From the NCBI GenBank assembly GCA_050950145.1, contig JBMNHB010000001.1, forward strand, positions 53,136 to 117,135: a stretch of 64,000 nucleotides of DNA, read 5' to 3'. How positions within the stretch are numbered: the stretch's first letter is position 1; every line of letters begins with the position of its first letter. The stretch comes from Candidatus Dojkabacteria bacterium (GTDB lineage Bacteria; Patescibacteriota; Dojkabacteria; SC72). This document shows positions 5,550-55,003 of the stretch, one piece after another. The notes below the pieces were generated by a model. That model saw only the letters and a program-made list of their open reading frames with translations, searched no databases and was not told the origin of the DNA. Made by a program: the position numbers and the translations under genes.

Positions 5550-6224
5550 TTATTCAGTAACCTTTTCTTCTTCAGGGGTAGCTTCAGTTGGTGTTTCTCC
5601 TTCTTCTGGCGTTTCTCCTTCAACTTCTCCTTCCTCTCCTTCTTCTGGTTCAACAGTCTCAATAATTTCTTCTTGCATTTCTGTAATTGTGACTACAGTA
5701 GCATTTTTTAACTCATCGTTAATAAGGGAGATTGTTTCAGGAATATTTAGGTCTTTAACAGCAATAGATTGACCTGGATGCTCAAGTTTTGAAATATCAA
5801 CCTCAATGGAAGGAATAAGGTCATTGACTTTACATCTAACTTCAATAGAATCCATAACTTCAACCATAACACCAAGATTGTTCTTAACTGCAGGTGATAT
5901 GCCGACAATTTCAAATGGAATAGAGAATACCATGTCTTTACTCTCATCAATTTCAAAAAATGCAATATGTCTTAAATCTTCAGTTATTGGATTTACATCA
6001 ATCTCTTTAACAACTGCTTTAAAAGTTTTTCCTTCTAACTCTAAATCTAAGATAGTTGTTGATGTTGCTTCTCTTGCAATCTGTTTTGCAGTTGCAAGAT
6101 CTAACATGATATTTTTAGATTCTGTTTTTGCATTGTAAACAACTGCTGGGACGAATCCTTCGCTTAATAAAACTTTGTTCTTTTTCCCATTTATATCTCT
6201 TTCGAGTAATTTGATTGTTTCCAT
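5550..6224 (-). CDS. rplY: 50S ribosomal protein L25 / general stress protein Ctc, acidic C-terminal tail
   Basis: L25/Ctc-like core (GKKNKVLLSEGFVPAVVYN...). Start set at METIKLL; the longer track ORF reads into the IS inverted repeat. Confidence 0.8.
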   Translation of the reverse strand: METIKLLERDINGKKNKVLLSEGFVPAVVYNAKTESKNIMLDLATAKQIAREATSTTILDLELEGKTFKAVVKEIDVNPITEDLRHIAFFEIDESKDMVFSIPFEIVGISPAVKNNLGVMVEVMDSIEVRCKVNDLIPSIEVDISKLEHPGQSIAVKDLNIPETISLINDELKNATVVTITEMQEEIIETVEPEEGEEGEVEGETPEEGETPTEATPEEEKVTE

Positions 6225-6269: not shown

Positions 6270-7253
6270 CTTAATCAGTAATGACATATTCCCCACCCTT
6301 AGTTAAACTAATGGTATAGGACAAATGAAAATAAGCACAATAAGAAAGAGGTTCTTAGAAAATAATAGGAATGTCTCTAAAACAGCAAGAGAACTAAACA
6401 TTGATAGAAAGACTGTCAGAAAGTGGATCAAAAAGAAAAGAGGATGGCATAACAAACTAGAATATGTAAACAAGAAAAGATTACCTACTACCCCAAAGAA
6501 TATTAAAAACAAAATATCTCTAGATACAAGGAGATTAATTGTACATATTAGAGAAGAATATGGATATGACCAAGATAAAATATCATTCATTCTAAAAAAT
6601 CAATACAATATACATGTGTCAGGAAAATCAATTTACAATATAATTAAGAAAAGAAAACCTTACTTAATTTCAAAAAGGAAGAAGTATGGAAGACCTCATT
6701 TCCAAGATAGTAGCCATATGAGACCTAGTAATACAAATAATGTGGGATATGTACAAATGGATGTAAAATATGTCACTCCACAGCTCTCTGGACTACCTTT
6801 TACATGCTACGAATATGGAATAATTGATATTTACTCTAGATATAAGTATGCATGGATATTACCTACATTGGATACAGAGAGTGCAATTGTAGCCCTTAGA
6901 GGAGCAAGACAATCTCTACCTTTTAAAATTAAGTTTGTACAGACAGATAATGGATGGGAGTTCTCAAAAAGGTTTAGTGAGGAATGTAAAAGATTAGGGA
7001 TTAAACATTACTACATTCACAAATCAACACCAAATGAGAATGCGGTAATTGAGAGGAGCTTTAGAACAGATCAAGAGGAGTTCTTCTTTAGATTAAAGAG
7101 TAGACCTAAAGATATTAATGAGCTAAATATCTTGTTTCAAAAGTTCCTACATGTATACAATACTTTTAGACCACATATTGGGATAGGGCTCAAAACTCCG
7201 CTACAGATGATACAATCTGAGCCGTAGGTGGGGAATATGTATTACTGATTAAG
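6270..7253 (+). mobile_element. Insertion sequence, IS481/IS3-like single-ORF DDE element with 6-bp target site duplication
   Basis: 28-bp terminal inverted repeats (cttaatcagtaat[g]acatattccccacc, 1 indel) at 6270-6298 and 7225-7253; direct repeat caccca at 6264-6269 and 7254-7259. Confidence 0.8.
6325..7227 (+). CDS. DDE transposase (rve integrase-core, IS481-like)
   Basis: N-terminal HTH; core ...QMDVKYV...FVQTDNGWEF...PNENAVIER; stop codon lies inside the right IR. Confidence 0.85.
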   Translation: MKISTIRKRFLENNRNVSKTARELNIDRKTVRKWIKKKRGWHNKLEYVNKKRLPTTPKNIKNKISLDTRRLIVHIREEYGYDQDKISFILKNQYNIHVSGKSIYNIIKKRKPYLISKRKKYGRPHFQDSSHMRPSNTNNVGYVQMDVKYVTPQLSGLPFTCYEYGIIDIYSRYKYAWILPTLDTESAIVALRGARQSLPFKIKFVQTDNGWEFSKRFSEECKRLGIKHYYIHKSTPNENAVIERSFRTDQEEFFFRLKSRPKDINELNILFQKFLHVYNTFRPHIGIGLKTPLQMIQSEP

Positions 7254-16502: not shown

Positions 16503-17027
16503 CTAAACGAACCTTACCTCTTGTGCTAGTACTTTTCCAATAATATCTCTACTGTTTCTTCTGTATTTAACAATCTCTAAGTTGCCGTTATCATTAATTA
16601 AAACAGTATCACCAATCTCATACTTACTATTTGGAGAAATATATACTACTCCATTACTTCCATCAACAATATTCATATCAACAGCAAATGTATTAATATC
16701 CATCTGCAATACCCAATCAGGTGCAGGATAGAATAGATATGATTTTGTTTTAAGAAAATCATTATTATCAGGTATTGATGTATAGTAAGGAATTTTGTTA
16801 GTAGAATAGTTATCTACTTGAGATGAAGAATCTCTAAGTAAATCTCTAGGATCAATATTAAGAGCATCTGCTAAATTATTCAATTGCTTAAGTGGAGAAC
16901 TCTCTCCTCTTTCATATCTAGAAATCATCTCCCAAGTCTTACCTATCTTGTCTCCTAATTCCCTCTGTGTTAACTTTTTTCTTTCTCTGTATATTTTAAT
17001 ATTCTCTCCAATATATTTATTGTTCAT
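16503..17027 (-). CDS. LexA-like repressor: XRE-family HTH plus S24 peptidase-like C-terminal domain
   Basis: N-terminal HTH (KLTQRELGDKIGKTWEMISRYERG); C-terminal S24-like beta domain keeps the Lys (EIVKYRR), but the catalytic Ser position aligns to AVDM, a possible non-cleaving variant. Confidence 0.6.
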   Translation of the reverse strand: MNNKYIGENIKIYRERKKLTQRELGDKIGKTWEMISRYERGESSPLKQLNNLADALNIDPRDLLRDSSSQVDNYSTNKIPYYTSIPDNNDFLKTKSYLFYPAPDWVLQMDINTFAVDMNIVDGSNGVVYISPNSKYEIGDTVLINDNGNLEIVKYRRNSRDIIGKVLAQEVRFV

Positions 17028-17060: not shown

Positions 17061-17332
17061 AGAATAGAAAAGAAGGTCATAGATATGAAATATAATTTCG
17101 TAATTGTAAGAATTTTGTAAGAAATGAAATAGATAATCTGTATATGGAAGCATTAAAAGAATTAGTAAAAGAAATAGATAGAATATATGGGAAAAAGAAG
17201 ATCAATAGAAGAGATTTAGAAAGATTGTTGAAGAAGTGTAGGAAGGTAAGAAAAACTTTATCCCGTTTTTAATCTGGATTTAATAATTTCTTGTTATATA
17301 TCTATATATCCTTAAATTTTTATCTAAAAATT

Positions 17333-18139
17333 ATGAAAGAAAATAACACAATCAAACTATTTCAAAACAAAAAGATACGAGTAGAGTGGAATAGTGAAAA
17401 AGAAGAATGGTTGTTCTCAATTGTAGATATCATAGGTGTTTTAACAGAGAGTCCAAATCCTAGAAATTACTGGAAAGTTTTGAAATTTAGGTTGCAAAAA
17501 GAGAATAGTCAGTTGGTTACAAATTGTAACCAACTGAAATTAAAATCATCTGACGGGAAATATTACAAAACAGATGTAGCGAATACAGAGCAGATTTTAA
17601 GAATCATACAATCAATACCTTCTCCAAAAGCAGAGCCTTTTAAATTATGGTTAGCACGGGTTGGTAAAGAACGAATAGATGAAACAATTGATCCAGAATT
17701 AACGATAGATAGAGCATTAAGAACTTATCAGAAAAAGGGATACAGTAAGGCATGGATAAATCAAAGATTACAATCTATTCAAGTAAGAAAAGAACTTACA
17801 GATGAATGGGAAGAAAGAGGTGTGAAGAGAGGTTTTGAGTTTGGAATCTTAACAGATGAGATAACTAAAGCTTGGTCTGACCTCACAACACGAAAATATA
17901 AAGAATTAAAAGGTTTAACAAAAGAAAACCTTAGAGACAATATGTCTACTATTGAAATAGTTCTGAATATGTTAGCAGAAGCATCAACAACAGAAATTTC
18001 CAAAGAAGTCCAACCAAAGAATTTTGATGAGAATAAAAAAGTAGCAAAGTTAGGAGGAAATGTTGCTGGAAATGCGAGAAAAGAAATAGAGAAGACAACA
18101 AAGAAGTCAATTATTACAAATAGAAAAACTCTTCAATAA
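17333..18139 (+). CDS. dinD: DNA-damage-inducible protein D homolog (Bro-N domain)
   Basis: N-terminal Bro-N-like segment (WLFSIVDIIGVL...NPRNYWK); C-terminal region collinear with E. coli DinD (..LKKNQKILDHMGSTELAANLF.. ~ ..LTKENLRDNMSTIEIVLNML..). Confidence 0.7.
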   Translation: MKENNTIKLFQNKKIRVEWNSEKEEWLFSIVDIIGVLTESPNPRNYWKVLKFRLQKENSQLVTNCNQLKLKSSDGKYYKTDVANTEQILRIIQSIPSPKAEPFKLWLARVGKERIDETIDPELTIDRALRTYQKKGYSKAWINQRLQSIQVRKELTDEWEERGVKRGFEFGILTDEITKAWSDLTTRKYKELKGLTKENLRDNMSTIEIVLNMLAEASTTEISKEVQPKNFDENKKVAKLGGNVAGNARKEIEKTTKKSIITNRKTLQ

Positions 18140-27354: not shown

Positions 27355-27621
27355 TTATACACCTTTAAAAGGATTTTTTAGTTGTAATGCAGATATAGCT
27401 CTTGATATTTGTGGGTTTTTTACTGATTTTGCTATATTAGATCTGTAATTACTTTTCTCTTCTGCTTTAAGTAATTGTTCTAAATCCGAACTTTTGGCTT
27501 CTTCTGTTAATGATTTTGTATCAACAGCTTGTGTTACAAGATATAGTTCTTCTTGTATTTTTTCAGGTTCTTTTTTAGTTGTTTTTTTATTAAAGAAACT
27601 AAACATTTTTATCTTCTTCAT
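27355..27621 (-). CDS. Small hypothetical protein, last gene of the VirB4 operon
   Basis: 88-aa ORF overlapping the virB4 3' end by 23 nt. Confidence 0.25.
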   Translation of the reverse strand: MKKIKMFSFFNKKTTKKEPEKIQEELYLVTQAVDTKSLTEEAKSSDLEQLLKAEEKSNYRSNIAKSVKNPQISRAISALQLKNPFKGV

Positions 27622-30010
27622 TAGGGTAACTTTCTGTATAGCCCTGTGGTGTTAAATGTTTCTTACCTTTTTGTATATCTTTCCTAGAACTCACAACTTG
27701 TCCTGTTAGGGTCTTTTGACTCAACTCATCTATGAATGTCTTTTGACTTTTATATTTATCTGGATTTATCACCTTTTCTTGTTCAACTAACCTTTTTTCT
27801 AACTCTTCTTGATATTTTATTCTTTCATCCAAGAGCATCTCTCTCTGTTTTTCTTTAGCCTCTATAGCTTCCATGATAATTTCGCTTTCTCTTGTACTAC
27901 TATCTCGTATAGGTTGTTGTACTGCTGGAGGATCATATATTTGAGCTAATTCTTGAACTGTTCTTGTGTCTGTTATACCTTCTTTTTCTTTGAGTCTTTC
28001 TAAATCTTTAGGGTCAGATGTAATAATTTCATGCTCAGCAACACTTGATAATACTTGAATACCAACATGGTTTTGTCCTGCAAAAAATAATCCTTGTCCT
28101 TTATCACAGTTTAATAGGTAATTTCTTTCTCCATCTGATAAGTTGAAAACTTTTTGTAGTAGTTCAACAGCAGAAGGGCTTTGTTTCATTAGCATTTGTA
28201 TTGAAGAGTTAGAGATAATTGCTTTTCCCATTTCATTTCCTAAGAAATCTGCAACATCTTGTGTAATTGTTGATAACCCTAGATAATATTTTCTAGCTCT
28301 TTTAGCAATAGTGTACATAAATTTAGCTGAATCCTCCGATTGCATCATATACCAAGCTTCATCAACAATTAATAATCTTCTTTTTCTATCTTTTCTAATT
28401 CTTGTCCAGATAAAGTCCAACATTAGGTACATAGCTAGTGGTTTTAGTTCATCCTGTAAATCTCTGATACTGAATACTGTGAATGGATTATTAATCTCAA
28501 AGTTACTTGCTTCATTAAATACTCCTGCACCACTTCCTATAATGTATTTTTCAAGCCTTCTTGCTAAACCATGTGCTTCTGTTTCAGCCATACCTTTAAG
28601 GACTTTGTATAAATCTTCAAGTAAAGGAGGTGTTTTGGTCTGAGTTTTAACATCAAATGTTATACCTTTTTCTTTGTATGTCAGAGATAAAGCTCTATCT
28701 AATATAGAATCTTCAATATTTGTTATTCCTTCAAATAGTACTTTGAAAAACCCATGAAGTGATAATAGTTTCATTCTTAACTCATCATCTCCTTCTTCTG
28801 TTACTCCTGAAAGTTCAAAAGGATTCATTTTGTGTCCCTTATCTTGTGAGAAAGAGATATAAGCTCCATTAACAGCTTTTGCTAAATTCTCATACTCTCT
28901 TTCTGGGTCAATTATGATAATCTCGGTTCCTAGCATTAAACTTCTAATAGCTTCAAGTTTAACGAAGTAACTTTTTCCTGCACCAGATTTTGCAAATATT
29001 ACTGCATTTGCATTTTCTAATTCAAACCTATCAAATACAATCAAACTCTTGTTGTGCATATTTAATCCATACATAATCCCATGATCCATTGTTAATTCCG
29101 AAGTAACAAATGGAAAAGTAGTAGCTAATGAAGTAGTATCCATATTTCTAGTTATGAAGAGGTTGTCTATTCCTAATGGTTGTGTACTTATGAATGCTTG
29201 TTCTTGTTGTAAGGTTGCAGGTTTAGCTGTTACATTCATTGCTGCAAATGTAGATATGACATTTCTTGATATCTTTTCCAATTCTTCTTTGTTGTTAGCA
29301 TAGAGGGTTACATACATGGAGAAATGGAAGAATTTCTCTGTTCCTTCTGCAATAGAGTCTTGTAACATTTGTGCGTCTGAGAGAGCAACTTTAAGTGATG
29401 GATCTATGACTTTTCTATCCTCCATCTGAGTGTAGAGTGTAGCTTCCATCTCACCTATCTTCTTTTTTAATTTTTCTAGAATGGTTTTAGAATCTACTGG
29501 ATAGTAGAATGTACTAATTCTTAATGAGTGCTCAAAGTTGATAATAGGAGATAACCAGTTAGGTCCTACGAATCTGGGATACCCACTTACGAATAGTGTT
29601 CTAAAGTAATATCCTCCCATCTGCAAATGAGTGAAATCAATTTCCATATCAATAGGGGCGAGTAAGTCCTGCATTGACATCTTTGTATCAACACCAATAC
29701 TACTATCAATACTTTGTACTTCTTCTTTAGGTACTTCTTGTACCTTATCTTCTTCTTTCTTTTCCTTACTTTTTTTGTTTTTTCCAGTGATTATGTCTAA
29801 TAGCTGAAATATAGGGTTAACCTTTTTCTTCTTCTCTTCATTTGTGTCTACAAACTCCTCTATTGGAACAAATGGTTTATCCATCTTATCACTAGGTTCT
29901 ACCTTTATCTGTTCTTTAAAGGTAGTATACTTCTCCTGTGCTGTTTGTAGCTTTTTTTGTCTTTCCATCATCATATTGCTAGTTTTACTTGTAATATTGT
30001 TGTTTTCCAT
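27599..30010 (-). CDS. virB4: Type IV secretion/conjugation ATPase, VirB4/TrbE/CagE family (Gram-positive TcpF/PrgJ-like)
   Basis: YFRTLFVSGYPRFV...WL pattern; Walker A AKSGAGKSY; NPF; Walker B LLIVDEAWYMM; RKYYLGLSTITQDVADF. K/E-rich ~110 aa N-terminal linker and ~130 aa coiled-coil C-terminal extension. Confidence 0.85.
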   Translation of the reverse strand: MENNNITSKTSNMMMERQKKLQTAQEKYTTFKEQIKVEPSDKMDKPFVPIEEFVDTNEEKKKKVNPIFQLLDIITGKNKKSKEKKEEDKVQEVPKEEVQSIDSSIGVDTKMSMQDLLAPIDMEIDFTHLQMGGYYFRTLFVSGYPRFVGPNWLSPIINFEHSLRISTFYYPVDSKTILEKLKKKIGEMEATLYTQMEDRKVIDPSLKVALSDAQMLQDSIAEGTEKFFHFSMYVTLYANNKEELEKISRNVISTFAAMNVTAKPATLQQEQAFISTQPLGIDNLFITRNMDTTSLATTFPFVTSELTMDHGIMYGLNMHNKSLIVFDRFELENANAVIFAKSGAGKSYFVKLEAIRSLMLGTEIIIIDPEREYENLAKAVNGAYISFSQDKGHKMNPFELSGVTEEGDDELRMKLLSLHGFFKVLFEGITNIEDSILDRALSLTYKEKGITFDVKTQTKTPPLLEDLYKVLKGMAETEAHGLARRLEKYIIGSGAGVFNEASNFEINNPFTVFSIRDLQDELKPLAMYLMLDFIWTRIRKDRKRRLLIVDEAWYMMQSEDSAKFMYTIAKRARKYYLGLSTITQDVADFLGNEMGKAIISNSSIQMLMKQSPSAVELLQKVFNLSDGERNYLLNCDKGQGLFFAGQNHVGIQVLSSVAEHEIITSDPKDLERLKEKEGITDTRTVQELAQIYDPPAVQQPIRDSSTRESEIIMEAIEAKEKQREMLLDERIKYQEELEKRLVEQEKVINPDKYKSQKTFIDELSQKTLTGQVVSSRKDIQKGKKHLTPQGYTESYPNEEDKNV

Positions 30011-30645
30011 TAATCTTCTTCAGGGTTATATGATGTATACAGTTCTGTTATTAACTCTTTTGTAGTTAATTGATGTCCGAAAAGTCCCATCCTTCCTAGT
30101 TGTTTTATTATATGATCCCTTTTAGGGTATAGGAATATTTTAGCTTTTTCTATTAATTGGTCCATTTTTATATTCCTATTTTGTTCTTCCTCTTCTTTGC
30201 TTTTCTTCTTTTTCAATATGGATGTTTCCGGTATTATAGATCCAGTATGATAGGGAACTATGATAAAAAAACTTTTATCTAGAACATCATTCTGTACGAT
30301 TAAATTTTTCACAAATGTTATGTATATGTTTAATTGTTTTTTTAATCCCTCACTCATAGCTTGTTGTTCTTGTGATTGTAGATAGGTAATGTAGTTGGTA
30401 ATATCTATCCTTTTTGTTCTAATCATTATCTGGATACGAAAATTCAAGGAATTCAGTAATCCTGCAAAAGCAAGTATCTTATTATCTTGTTCATACTCTG
30501 CAAGTAAATCAAAATTAATAGCAGATGTTTGTATTACCATCGCAACACTTCCATTTTTATTTATCACCAAGTCATCACGAATATCTCGTACCGCTAGATG
30601 ATCTTGTGTTGATGCTGTTGCTCTTGCTCTTGCATTTCTATCCAT
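30010..30645 (-). CDS. VirB4 N-terminal domain encoded as a separate, translationally coupled ORF
   Basis: IRDDLVINKNGSVAMVIQTSAINFDLLAEYEQDNKILAFAGLLNSL...RIQI matches the conserved N-terminal domain of Gram-positive VirB4 ATPases; stop/start overlap TAATG with virB4. Confidence 0.55.
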   Translation of the reverse strand: MDRNARARATASTQDHLAVRDIRDDLVINKNGSVAMVIQTSAINFDLLAEYEQDNKILAFAGLLNSLNFRIQIMIRTKRIDITNYITYLQSQEQQAMSEGLKKQLNIYITFVKNLIVQNDVLDKSFFIIVPYHTGSIIPETSILKKKKSKEEEEQNRNIKMDQLIEKAKIFLYPKRDHIIKQLGRMGLFGHQLTTKELITELYTSYNPEED

Positions 30646-30646
30646 T

Positions 30647-31477
30647 TTAAAGTGTAGTTATCTTAATAGGTAAGTTCTTTTCATTTCCACTTAATAATAT
30701 ATCTACCTTAGGGAACATGTATTGATTATTATCAAATTCAATAGAATATTTTCCTGGTTTCCATTTCTGATTTGTTAAAAAGTATCCATTACTCCCCGTT
30801 TTATTAGCATACAAAAGATTCCCATTTTCATCTTTTAATAGAGTTACAATATTAGGAATTGGTTTGAAGTCTTTTGTACTAATCCAAATATTAATATTTC
30901 CAGGTAGATTGTCAAAACCTTTGGCATTAAATTGATATTGAGAAATATTCTCTTCATTTATTAAAATATATTCAGGATTTACACTCTTAGGAGCAGAACT
31001 CTCAAGACTTTCTAATTCCTCATCTATTTTCTTTTGTACTTCGGATATGGGTTGTTCTGTCTTTTTATCTGTTAATTGAACTCCAATAATTTTCTTCTTT
31101 TTTTCTTTAGTATCCTTTGCTATTAATTTACCATCTTCAGATGGTTTTAAATGTGGCTTTACTCTGTTTTTTTCATCCTCTTTACTAATCCATGCTCTCT
31201 GTGTAGGACTAGTTATTGCCCTTATATAGTTCTGTATAAATTTGTCAGCAGGTTGGTCATTTATTGGTACAAGAGCTAGGAAGATACCAGCTAAAGATGA
31301 GAGGATGAATACAGGGATACCAATTATAGGTGGAATTGTATTACCAATGGTTAGATAGAGAACTAAGCCACCCAAACCAACACCTAGTGCTAAATATGCA
31401 AATTCTTTGAGAGTGAACTTAGTAAAAAGTTTAAACTCTACATCTAATACATTTTGAGGTATTGCATGTTGTTTCAT
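30647..31477 (-). CDS. VirB3-like two-TM membrane protein with C-terminal beta-rich extracytoplasmic domain
   Basis: Two adjacent N-terminal TM helices (LALGVGLGGLVLYLTIG / IIGIPVFILSSLAGIFLALVP) immediately upstream of the virB4 ORFs. Confidence 0.4.
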   Translation of the reverse strand: MKQHAIPQNVLDVEFKLFTKFTLKEFAYLALGVGLGGLVLYLTIGNTIPPIIGIPVFILSSLAGIFLALVPINDQPADKFIQNYIRAITSPTQRAWISKEDEKNRVKPHLKPSEDGKLIAKDTKEKKKKIIGVQLTDKKTEQPISEVQKKIDEELESLESSAPKSVNPEYILINEENISQYQFNAKGFDNLPGNINIWISTKDFKPIPNIVTLLKDENGNLLYANKTGSNGYFLTNQKWKPGKYSIEFDNNQYMFPKVDILLSGNEKNLPIKITTL

Positions 31478-31550
31478 TGGCAGTAATTATATACTACATA
31501 TTACCAGAATATGAAAGAAATTATTAGTATTAGTATATAGGAGTGGGGAG

Positions 31551-31719
31551 GGTTACCTTATCAATTTCTGTTGTTTAGTTGAGGACTATATATGCTTTGT
31601 TATGATTAGTTAACATACTATAAGGTACTTAAAACTAGTATAAGTCTTCTAGTAAATTAAATTTTGTCTGAAGAATACATATAGTCTTTAGAGGATAAGC
31701 AGAAATTGATAAGGTAACC
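31551..31719. repeat. 169-bp element closed by a perfect 20-bp inverted repeat (ggttaccttatcaatttctg), with inner 8-9 bp stem
   Basis: IR arms at 31551-31570 and 31700-31719; inner gactatat / atatagtc pairing; sits in the divergent intergenic region between the virB3-like and nucleotidyltransferase genes. Confidence 0.6.
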
Positions 31720-31743
31720 TCATATAAGATATAATTTTACAGC

Positions 31744-32502
31744 ATGAATAATTTCACAAAACTCTTACAATTTCGTTCCCTTTTTAACAAAGATATTGCC
31801 AAGGAAGAATCTATCAGGATATGGGGTAAGGAATACGAAGGTACTTTTAAAAGTAAGAAAAATATCTATGTTGATAAAAAGGTAAAAATTGCTAAAGAGA
31901 ATATTCCCTTTTTGTTAATAGGAAATCTAGTTCAATTCATAGGTATATCTGGTTCTGTTGGAAGTGGTTTTGCTAAAGAAGAGGATGATATTGATATCTT
32001 TGTTGTAACTAGAAATGGAAGTATGTGGTTATATAGAGCATTGGTACAGATAAAGAATATTTTTCATAGAAAGATAAGGATTAAGGGTGAAAAAGATGTA
32101 AAAGATAAACTTTGTCTTAATTTAATCGCAGAGGAAAGAGGTCTTACATTTGATTCAGATATTTTTAATTTTAATGAATTAATGTACTTAATACCGATAT
32201 ACAATGAAAAATATCTTAACTATATATATTCTCAAAACAAGTGGTTGCTAACAGAATATGAAGTGAAAAAAGAAAATATGATTACAAAAGTTAAACCTCA
32301 AGGAGAGGTAAATATATTTATGCAAATATTGAACAAATTTTTTTACTTTCTTCAGTTAATATATATGAAATTAGCTAGACACAGACCTGATTTACAAAGG
32401 ATTCAAAAGAATTCAAAAAAGGGTAGAATTGAGTTTTTTCCTAAGAAATTTAGAGAAAGAAAAATAGAGAACTACTTAAAAGAATTCAAATCTATTAGTT
32501 GA
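31744..32502 (+). CDS. Nucleotidyltransferase-fold protein (Pol-beta superfamily)
   Basis: GS..x..DxD motif: GISGSVGSGFAKEEDDIDIFVV. Confidence 0.5.
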   Translation: MNNFTKLLQFRSLFNKDIAKEESIRIWGKEYEGTFKSKKNIYVDKKVKIAKENIPFLLIGNLVQFIGISGSVGSGFAKEEDDIDIFVVTRNGSMWLYRALVQIKNIFHRKIRIKGEKDVKDKLCLNLIAEERGLTFDSDIFNFNELMYLIPIYNEKYLNYIYSQNKWLLTEYEVKKENMITKVKPQGEVNIFMQILNKFFYFLQLIYMKLARHRPDLQRIQKNSKKGRIEFFPKKFRERKIENYLKEFKSIS

Positions 32503-54816: not shown

Positions 54817-55003
54817 CTAGGTCTGCCCCTTGTTCATAAGTTTTTCATAATGTCCTAACCGTCTCCTACTACTGAGTAATTTCAACATTCAAACCGACAC
54901 CTAGACCAAAAGTTGTACAATGATACAGAGCGAAGGATTAGGAGACCTTTCTAGAAAAGAGAAACTTCACCATTAAATTTCTATTAACGCGGGGCAGACC
55001 TAG
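54817..55003. repeat. 187-bp element closed by a 13-bp inverted repeat (ctaggtctgcccc / ggggcagacctag)
   Basis: IR arms at 54817-54829 and 54991-55003, between the infB stop and the RuBisCO start; arm contains the palindrome gacctaggtc. Confidence 0.45.

Follow-up and report, generated by a model that had tools for sequence, protein, structure and literature searches.

Between two divergently transcribed genes of a Candidatus Dojkabacteria bacterium lies a short element closed at both ends by a perfect inverted repeat, and the locus raises the question of what such an element is and what it does there. The element was found in a 64-kb stretch of contig JBMNHB010000001.1 (hereinafter referred to as the window), within a spacer of 266 bp that separates a PrgI-family gene, which opens a type IV secretion system (T4SS)-like operon, from a Pol-beta-type nucleotidyltransferase (NTase) gene. 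The original prediction, made from the sequence of the window, had proposed a structured RNA, a mobile element resembling miniature inverted-repeat transposable elements (MITEs), or a large operator or recombination site. With a probability of roughly one half, we consider it a MITE-like palindromic module that spreads horizontally, whose termini donate a -35 box to adjacent genes and whose core can invert. The element belongs to a family with invariant termini that is patchily present at two loci, has a history incongruent with that of the host genes, occurs with its core in both orientations and shows promoter-like geometry; the means of movement, and any enzymatic or regulated character of the inversion, we can only infer.

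Structure and location of the element

The predicted 20-bp terminal inverted repeat was confirmed, the left arm (GGTTACCTTATCAATTTCTG) being the exact reverse complement of the right arm over a span of 169 bp. Pairing of the arms runs on imperfectly to 41 nt with 78% complementarity, and the inner stem (gactatat/atatagtc) was recovered as an 8-bp inverted repeat (Table 1). The location in the divergent region of a VirB-type operon and the NTase gene was likewise borne out. No open reading frame (ORF) of at least 20 aa was found inside the 169-bp element.

When the 20-mer was searched with up to three mismatches, two sites were found in 64 kb, both of them the arms, against 0.01 expected from shuffled sequences. 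The arms also form the longest inverted repeat within 400 nt across the whole window, and by our own estimate a 64-kb sequence of 33% GC would contain a perfect 20-bp inverted repeat within 400 nt by chance with a probability of about 2e-4. For these reasons the element is not a product of chance, in agreement with the original prediction.

Family of the element in related genomes

Relatives were collected from 80 Dojkabacteria loci retrieved via the NTase gene, a metagenome scan for the 18-mer of the arm, and look-ups of NTase and HAD-hydrolase homologues (loci are designated L001, L002 and so on). The first 120 metagenome matches to the 18-mer were examined. Apart from the family, most of the single-arm matches listed were due to chance or to coding sequence (motif EQEIDKVTTP) and came from unrelated organisms of higher GC content.

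In the window, L003, L005/L157, L101, L177 and L211/L212, two inverted copies of the 18-mer GGTTACCTTATCAATTTC were found at a distance of 154-170 bp. L217/L218 belong to the same family, with one altered base in the left arm, and the JGI metagenome contig L001, from the same strain as the window, carries an identical element. The NTase protein of the window is also identical to one encoded on a 748,838-bp contig of a Candidatus Dojkabacteria metagenome-assembled genome. Family members are non-coding, 154-170 bp long and homologous in their interiors, and identical-armed homologues were recovered from at least seven lineages beyond the window. They occupy two loci: upstream of prgI (the window; L003 and its strains L226-L229; L005/L157) and upstream of a HAD hydrolase gene (L101; L177; L211/L212; L217/L218). 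Truncated copies with one arm missing were also present upstream of the HAD gene (L146; L213-L215). The family is confined to a subclade of Candidatus Dojkabacteria. The original prediction named a lack of further copies and of conserved arms in close relatives among the findings that would refute it; further copies were in fact found, and relatives have kept the arms.

The full copies share four interior blocks (GGACTATA; GATTAGTTAAyATACTAyAAG; CTCTAGyAArTTAAAT; TATAGTCC) and a common anatomy, in which an inner 7-10-bp repeat (GACTATA/TATAGTC) surrounds a core of roughly 75-90 bp. Each half of the core consists of a conserved TTAAmT, a variable spacer of exactly 17 bp and TATAGT, facing outward. 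Between the window and L003, the arms are identical at 36/36 positions and the interiors about 65% identical, as read off the alignment, which suggests that the termini come under much stronger constraint than the interior once the element is resident. In a literature search on Dojkabacteria inverted repeats, Patescibacteria invertons and MITEs of the candidate phyla radiation (CPR), nothing comparable was found; the query on MITEs led to an unrelated DGR preprint.

Patchy presence and incongruent history

In the prgI-NTase spacer, the window and L003 (80% NTase identity) carry the element, and the site was empty in the closer relatives L202, L206 and L210 (86, 85 and 83% NTase identity, respectively). 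Empty sites were also found in L004, L007, L008 and L009. On the VirB4 tree, ((L009,(L005,L004)),((L210,((L202,L206),window)),(L003,L002))), each carrier at the prgI locus (window, L003 and L005) has an element-free sister lineage, and at least three gains or at least five losses are therefore required. The distance between the element and the prgI ATG also differs, at 74 nt in the window, about 85 nt in L003 and 38 nt in L005. At the HAD locus, the element was present in a clade at 76% or higher HAD identity and absent in relatives at 71% and 64%.

The history of the element disagrees with that of the host genes. L101 and L177 have HAD proteins that are 75% identical and elements that are about 97% identical, whereas L101 and L217, whose HAD proteins are 97% identical, differ in that the core of L217 is inverted and 12% diverged.

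Unrelated, unannotated genes were also found inserted in the prgI-NTase spacer of three relatives, with products of 231 aa (L002:4855-6000), 295 aa (L206:5668-6759) and 152 aa (L005:4998-6000), and the spacer therefore appears to be an insertion hot spot.

Inversion of the core

L101 and L217/L218 share 119 of 120 flanking nucleotides, and the arm on the HAD side and the variable segment next to it are also the same. The 88-bp cores, with GACTATA and TATAGTC as their borders, aligned at 87.5% identity only after one of them had been reverse-complemented. Since both orientations occur within near-identical flanks and each is backed by independent assemblies, the core flips by recombination at the inner repeat. 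This inversion was seen between strains only, and at the inner repeat only. A single orientation was found in all five assemblies of the L003 species, and the window agrees with L001 and L005 with L157; judging from this agreement, the flip is not obviously frequent.

A separate change was observed directly outside the left arm in L229 (approximately 1285-1312), where a 27-nt patch is replaced relative to L003 (approximately 5778-5807), the surrounding 3 kb being otherwise 99-100% identical. The replaced patch in L229 resembles the flank in the window.

Promoter-like sequences at the ends and in the core

On the NTase side, TTGATA in the right arm lies 18 bp from a TATAAT in the flank (31730-31735), which is the best promoter match in the region, and the ATG follows 8 nt past the TATAAT in a leaderless-type arrangement. 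The same geometry, with 18 bp, was found at the NTase junction of L003. At the HAD junction, six lineages have a 17-bp spacing, with the ATG 5 nt past the TATAAT, while the distal junction of L101/L217 has an 18-bp spacing and faces a 64-aa ORF with a Shine-Dalgarno sequence; these three junctions were read from the sequences. No TATAAT was found at junctions facing the 3' end of a gene. Assuming random insertion within about 100 nt, the chance that three independent junction types have the right spacing is, roughly, <1e-4. Because TATAAT lies 17-18 bp from the TTGATA of the arm where a gene start adjoins, the arm probably supplies the -35 box for the neighbouring gene. The box would be that of a sigma-70-type promoter of predicted activity, leaderless for the NTase and HAD genes.

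The core carries comparable motifs. In every copy the inner -35-like and -10-like hexamers are separated by 17 bp of variable sequence, and these TTAAmT-17-TATAGT pairs may be additional outward promoters. Fixed hexamer spacing around a variable spacer is a promoter signature, and the element would be best described as two back-to-back outward promoter-like units, an arrangement which explains its nested inverted repeats. When TTAAWT-N16-18-TATAGTC was considered as a general promoter motif, it was rejected, as within the window it occurs in the element only. An armless motif resembling half of the element (TTAAAT/TTAAAA-N17-TATAGTC) was seen upstream of lepA in L029 (3665-3718) and L015 (9652-9696); aimed at the 3' end of the next gene, this solitary motif may drive transcription of a small or antisense RNA. 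G-rich GGGnnGGG tracts were also considered as a shared flank signal and set aside, since the intergenic cases were heterogeneous and mostly terminator loops.

A perfect TATAAT 5-8 nt before the start codon was found at eight genes of the window, including prgI, NTase, recF-like and lepA genes (starts at 2535, 3549, 30647-31477, 31744, 33527, 35406, 46277 and 61781). Given this recurrence, TATAAT-N5-8-ATG is taken as the normal promoter style of the organism, and the pattern suggests that leaderless transcripts are widespread in this genome. In addition, about 60 nt upstream of prgI (CATTGGCAGTTTCTATTATACCTACATATTACCAGAATATGAAAGAAAATATTAG, 31478-31539) is nearly invariant, with or without the element, in the window, L002, L004, L007-L009, L202, L206 and L210. 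PrgI proteins of the same lineages are only 55-95% identical, so that this stretch is more conserved than the coding sequence; it is probably the promoter and regulatory site of the T4SS-like operon.

Proposed mechanism and points against it

The observations can be combined as follows. The element would enter promoter-proximal spacers, the spacer upstream of prgI having been entered in three separate lineages. There, TTGATA of the arm would pair with TATAAT of the flank and drive the adjacent gene. In the resident element, the termini would be held by constraint and the interior would be free to diverge, and the core would flip through recombination between the inner repeats. As in MITEs, the sequence is short and non-coding, has terminal inverted repeats, shows presence/absence polymorphism and occurs as copies at unrelated loci.

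Several observations weigh against this reading. The original prediction had called for target-site duplications to be sought at the junctions in relatives; this further feature of MITEs was absent from every junction pair examined, as read by eye (the window, L003, L005, L101, L177, L211 and L217). No autonomous element with matching termini was found among the first 120 metagenome matches listed, where a second arm was sought, not exhaustively, within 3 kb of each single-arm match. No further family copy was detected in the 64-kb window or in about 118 kb of carrier genomes, from which each genome would seem to have few copies. At the prgI locus, homologous recombination could have spread the element as an allelic replacement, without transposition; in the window and L003, the right flank is shared as far as the NTase ATG. 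The invariance of the arms over deep divergence would suit a protein-binding site equally well. On the prgI side, the hybrid promoter is poor, with a 19-bp spacer in the window and no -10 box in L003, and promoter activity in general is deduced from sequence. The mobile character proposed originally thus stood as regards copies at other loci and in other genomes, patchiness and incongruent history, and failed as regards target-site duplication.

Candidates for the autonomous partner (L184/L192, L090, L198, L083 and L084) were rejected as histidine-kinase or other ordinary genes of unrelated, higher-GC organisms. Scans of viral contigs gave neither a two-arm copy nor a conserved inner block, and one chance single-arm match (L225).

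Alternative explanations

The alternative that survives best is an inverton, in which a site-specific recombinase would flip the segment and alter the expression of the T4SS-like operon, the NTase gene or the HAD gene, that is, phase variation in a CPR bacterium. We regard this as doubtful. A repeat-bounded segment of 150-170 bp with promoter-like motifs lies directly upstream of a surface-apparatus operon, the core occurs in both orientations at one locus in near-identical strains (L101 and L217), and a terminal sequence shared by several loci is compatible with a single global invertase. The absence of target-site duplication is also what a switch predicts, and, relative to the interior, the G-rich box changes sides between the window and L177. 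However, the sole flip observed used the 7-10-bp inner repeats and moved about 74-88 bp, which leaves very little room for a synaptic complex. The halves of the core are quasi-symmetric, with promoter-like motifs facing outward on both strands; as both halves read TTAAmT-17-TATAGT, flipping swaps like for like. The constant orientation within the L003 species and in the window/L001 and L005/L157 pairs also argues against a switch. No tyrosine or serine recombinase was detected by Pfam in 52 ORFs of the window (all non-overlapping ORFs of at least 100 aa included), and none was called beside the other copies. Further, an inverton leaves the patchy presence and the incongruent phylogeny unexplained. 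The operator or recombination site of the original prediction was supported in part, by inversion of the core between strains and by the likeness of the arms to promoter parts.

Rather speculatively, the element may instead be a promoter cassette, self-spreading or driven by a recombinase, for which the control region of the PrgI/VirB4 T4SS-like apparatus is a recurrent target and whose flippable core serves as a phase-variation switch. Such a cassette might move between lineages via the DNA-uptake machinery of the cells themselves.

A fixed regulatory module is unlikely. Here, the arms would be operators of one regulator acting on divergent promoters, by looping or by occlusion of the -35 box, and prgI and the HAD gene would form a regulon. 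Both arms have kept their sequence over deep divergence, unlike the interior and the flanks, they overlap the predicted -35 boxes, and the HAD-proximal half of the element is more conserved than the HAD coding sequence when L101 is compared with L177 and L213, all of which would agree with operators. A single arm is not a palindrome, however, and the distances between arm centres (136, 140 and 151-152 bp) are out of helical register. No candidate regulator was linked to any copy. Moreover, homology of the whole interior between loci, patchiness and incongruence would still require movement.

A structured non-coding RNA (ncRNA) gene, whose ends form a 20-bp closing stem (6S-like, Y-RNA-like or a new small RNA) and which was sometimes relocated, is an improbable explanation, and this part of the original prediction was not supported. 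The fold is stable on the plus strand (-60.4 kcal/mol, z = -7.3) and on the minus strand (-48.3 kcal/mol, z = -8.3), but stability on both strands is expected for any long inverted repeat. Interior blocks are strongly conserved, and at a few positions beside the inner stem both partners change (one pair occurs as T-A, T.G and C-G). Nevertheless, RNAalifold gave covariation terms of only -0.16 (five copies) and -0.48 kcal/mol (seven copies), with the 18 outer pairs invariant and 3-5 pairs with any double change among seven distinct sequences, which limits the power of this comparison. No match at gathering score was obtained in Rfam 15 for the window or five related loci; at E <= 10, the element region gave only plant and animal microRNA-type noise (E > 3), attributable to the long hairpin. 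The better-folding strand is inconsistent among copies, segments between the two stems are unpaired in several of them, and no terminator was found. An RNA gene is also at odds with the absence of the element from most close relatives, with inversion of the core, which would destroy a strand-specific RNA, and with one-armed truncated copies that persist in three assemblies.

A chance or purely structural palindrome without biological role, for which the AT-rich composition and nothing else speaks, is refuted by the shuffle expectation and by the identical-armed homologues in other lineages.

Among other systems considered, an integron attC site, an IHF site in the arm and a Frpo-like single-strand promoter were rejected by comparison of the sequence with the known consensus motifs. 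A retron ncRNA, an IS110 bridge RNA and an IS605 omega-RNA were rejected because no reverse transcriptase, recombinase or TnpB gene is adjacent.

Features of the element and other repeats in the window

The coordinates of the element and its surroundings are given in Table 1.

Table 1. Features of the palindromic element and adjacent genes, in window positions
Feature	Position	Strand	Remarks
PrgI-family gene, first of T4SS-like operon	30647-31477	minus	Followed by TraC-like (30010-30645) and VirB4/TraG P-loop (27599-30010) genes
Resident prgI promoter region (predicted), outside the element	31478-31539	minus	TTCATA-18-TATAAT, 31515 to 31486; ATG 8 nt on
G-rich box GGAGTGGGGAG adjoining left arm	31540-31550	plus	Same box adjoins the L177 arm at an unrelated locus
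Left terminal inverted repeat	31551-31570		20 bp here; first 18 bp (31551-31568) family-invariant
Outward TTGATA in left arm	31559-31564	minus	Plus-strand TATCAA; from sequence
Left variable segment	31571-31583		Between terminal and inner repeats; weakly conserved, pairs partly with right counterpart
Inner inverted repeat, left copy GACTATAT	31584-31591		Minus-strand -10-like TATAGT at 31585-31590
Core, two quasi-symmetric halves	31592-31678		Core plus inner repeats is the segment inverted between L101 and L217
Family-conserved block GATTAGTTAACATACTATAAG in core	31604-31624		From alignment of copies
-35-like TTAACT in core	31608-31613	minus	Exactly 17 bp from a TATAGT
-35-like TTAAAT in core	31657-31662	plus	Exactly 17 bp from a TATAGT
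Inner inverted repeat, right copy ATATAGTC	31679-31686		Plus-strand -10-like TATAGT at 31680-31685
Right variable segment	31687-31699		From alignment of copies
Right terminal inverted repeat	31700-31719		Plus-strand outward TTGATA at 31706-31711
Predicted hybrid promoter of NTase gene	31706-31735	plus	TTGATA-18-TATAAT, 11/12 consensus matches; ATG 31744
Pol-beta-type NTase gene	31744-32502	plus	Predicted promoter uses the right arm

A second element, reported by the original prediction as similar in architecture, was found between infB and RuBisCO, with arms at 54817-54838 and 54982-55003, a span of 187 bp and a 13-bp perfect core (CTAGGTCTGCCCC/GGGGCAGACCTAG). Its existence and dimensions were thus verified; its sequence has nothing in common with the family, it was not detected by the family hidden Markov model, and it gave no Rfam match. 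The z-scores of its fold were modest (-3.7 and -2.5), and it is identical in L223 and L224, which are from the same strain as the window.

A complete insertion sequence (IS) adjoins the L25 gene (6264-7259), encoding a DDE transposase (rve/rve_3 plus a helix-turn-helix (HTH) domain; 6325-7227), with 27/28-bp terminal inverted repeats (6270-6297/7227-7253) and a 6-bp duplication, CACCCA (6264-6269/7254-7259). Its transposase is the only one in the window. This IS (6270-7253) was rejected as the mobiliser of the palindromic element, as its terminal repeats are unrelated to the arms and it makes a 6-bp duplication.

Two further palindromes were observed. Upstream of the NTase gene in the distant Dojkabacteria L057 (5676-5934) and L054 (5616-5940), a perfect 26-bp palindrome (TTAGGTAGAACCT|AGGTTCTACCTAA) is accompanied by two or three further copies and looks like an operator array. 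In the window, a perfect 14-bp palindrome with arms 1 nt apart (TCAGTTGGTTACAA/TTGTAACCAACTGA, 17509-17537) lies inside the ORF at 17291-18139, which encodes a Bro-N-domain protein with a TTG start downstream of an HTH (Cro/C1-type) gene (16503-17027).

Implications

Very little is known of mobile DNA and gene regulation in the CPR, and the family offers a concrete example, a very small non-coding element entering promoter regions, among them that of a T4SS-like apparatus thought to be relevant to a host-attached lifestyle. Regulated inversion would amount to phase variation in organisms whose genomes measure about 0.75 Mb; with unregulated inversion, the family would still help to trace recombination and DNA exchange between co-resident Dojkabacteria. 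Should the promoter cassette with a phase switch prove true, it would be the first description of an invertible or mobile promoter system from ultra-small, host-dependent CPR bacteria.

Comparison with known systems

Correia elements of Neisseria (CREE/NEMIS) are non-coding, about 100-160 bp long, intergenic near gene starts and bounded by long terminal inverted repeats; their ends give outward promoter elements, and transcribed copies fold into long hairpins. They have 26-bp terminal repeats, duplicate a TA target and reach hundreds of copies per genome. The Dojkabacteria element shares their size, non-coding nature, position at gene starts, terminal repeats and outward promoter parts, but it has no TA duplication at its junctions and no sign of a high copy number, and it differs further in its nested inner repeat, flipping core and CPR host.

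In IS1, IS2 and IS257, an outward -35 box in the terminal repeat forms a hybrid promoter with a resident -10 box at 17-18 bp, and both this placement and this spacing are shared. These IS are autonomous and encode a transposase, whereas the Dojkabacteria element is 169 bp long, lacks an ORF and has the feature at both ends.

Invertons, such as E. coli fimS, the polysaccharide promoters of Bacteroides fragilis, and flg and cwpV of Clostridioides difficile, are repeat-bounded promoter segments of 150-300 bp upstream of surface-structure operons. Architecture, the use of the same repeat at several loci and the occurrence of both orientations in nature are common to them and the Dojkabacteria element. 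The latter differs in that no recombinase was found, the flip occurs at the short inner repeat and the content is quasi-symmetric; in addition, close relatives differ in whether they carry it, which is unusual for invertons.

ERIC/IRU, RUP and BOX elements are likewise imperfect intergenic palindromes of 100-170 bp with patchy presence and obscure movement. They differ in sequence, host and copy number, and are not known for invariant 18-bp termini with a flipping core. Chloroplast flip-flop inversions show that short repeat-bounded segments can invert recurrently without a dedicated recombinase, and by analogy such a process could underlie the differing cores of L101 and L217; it is a mutational process rather than an element family, and accounts for the inversion only. 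Taken by analogy, the Dojkabacteria element would work most like Correia elements and the outward -35 boxes borne by IS, and its architecture resembles that of invertons.

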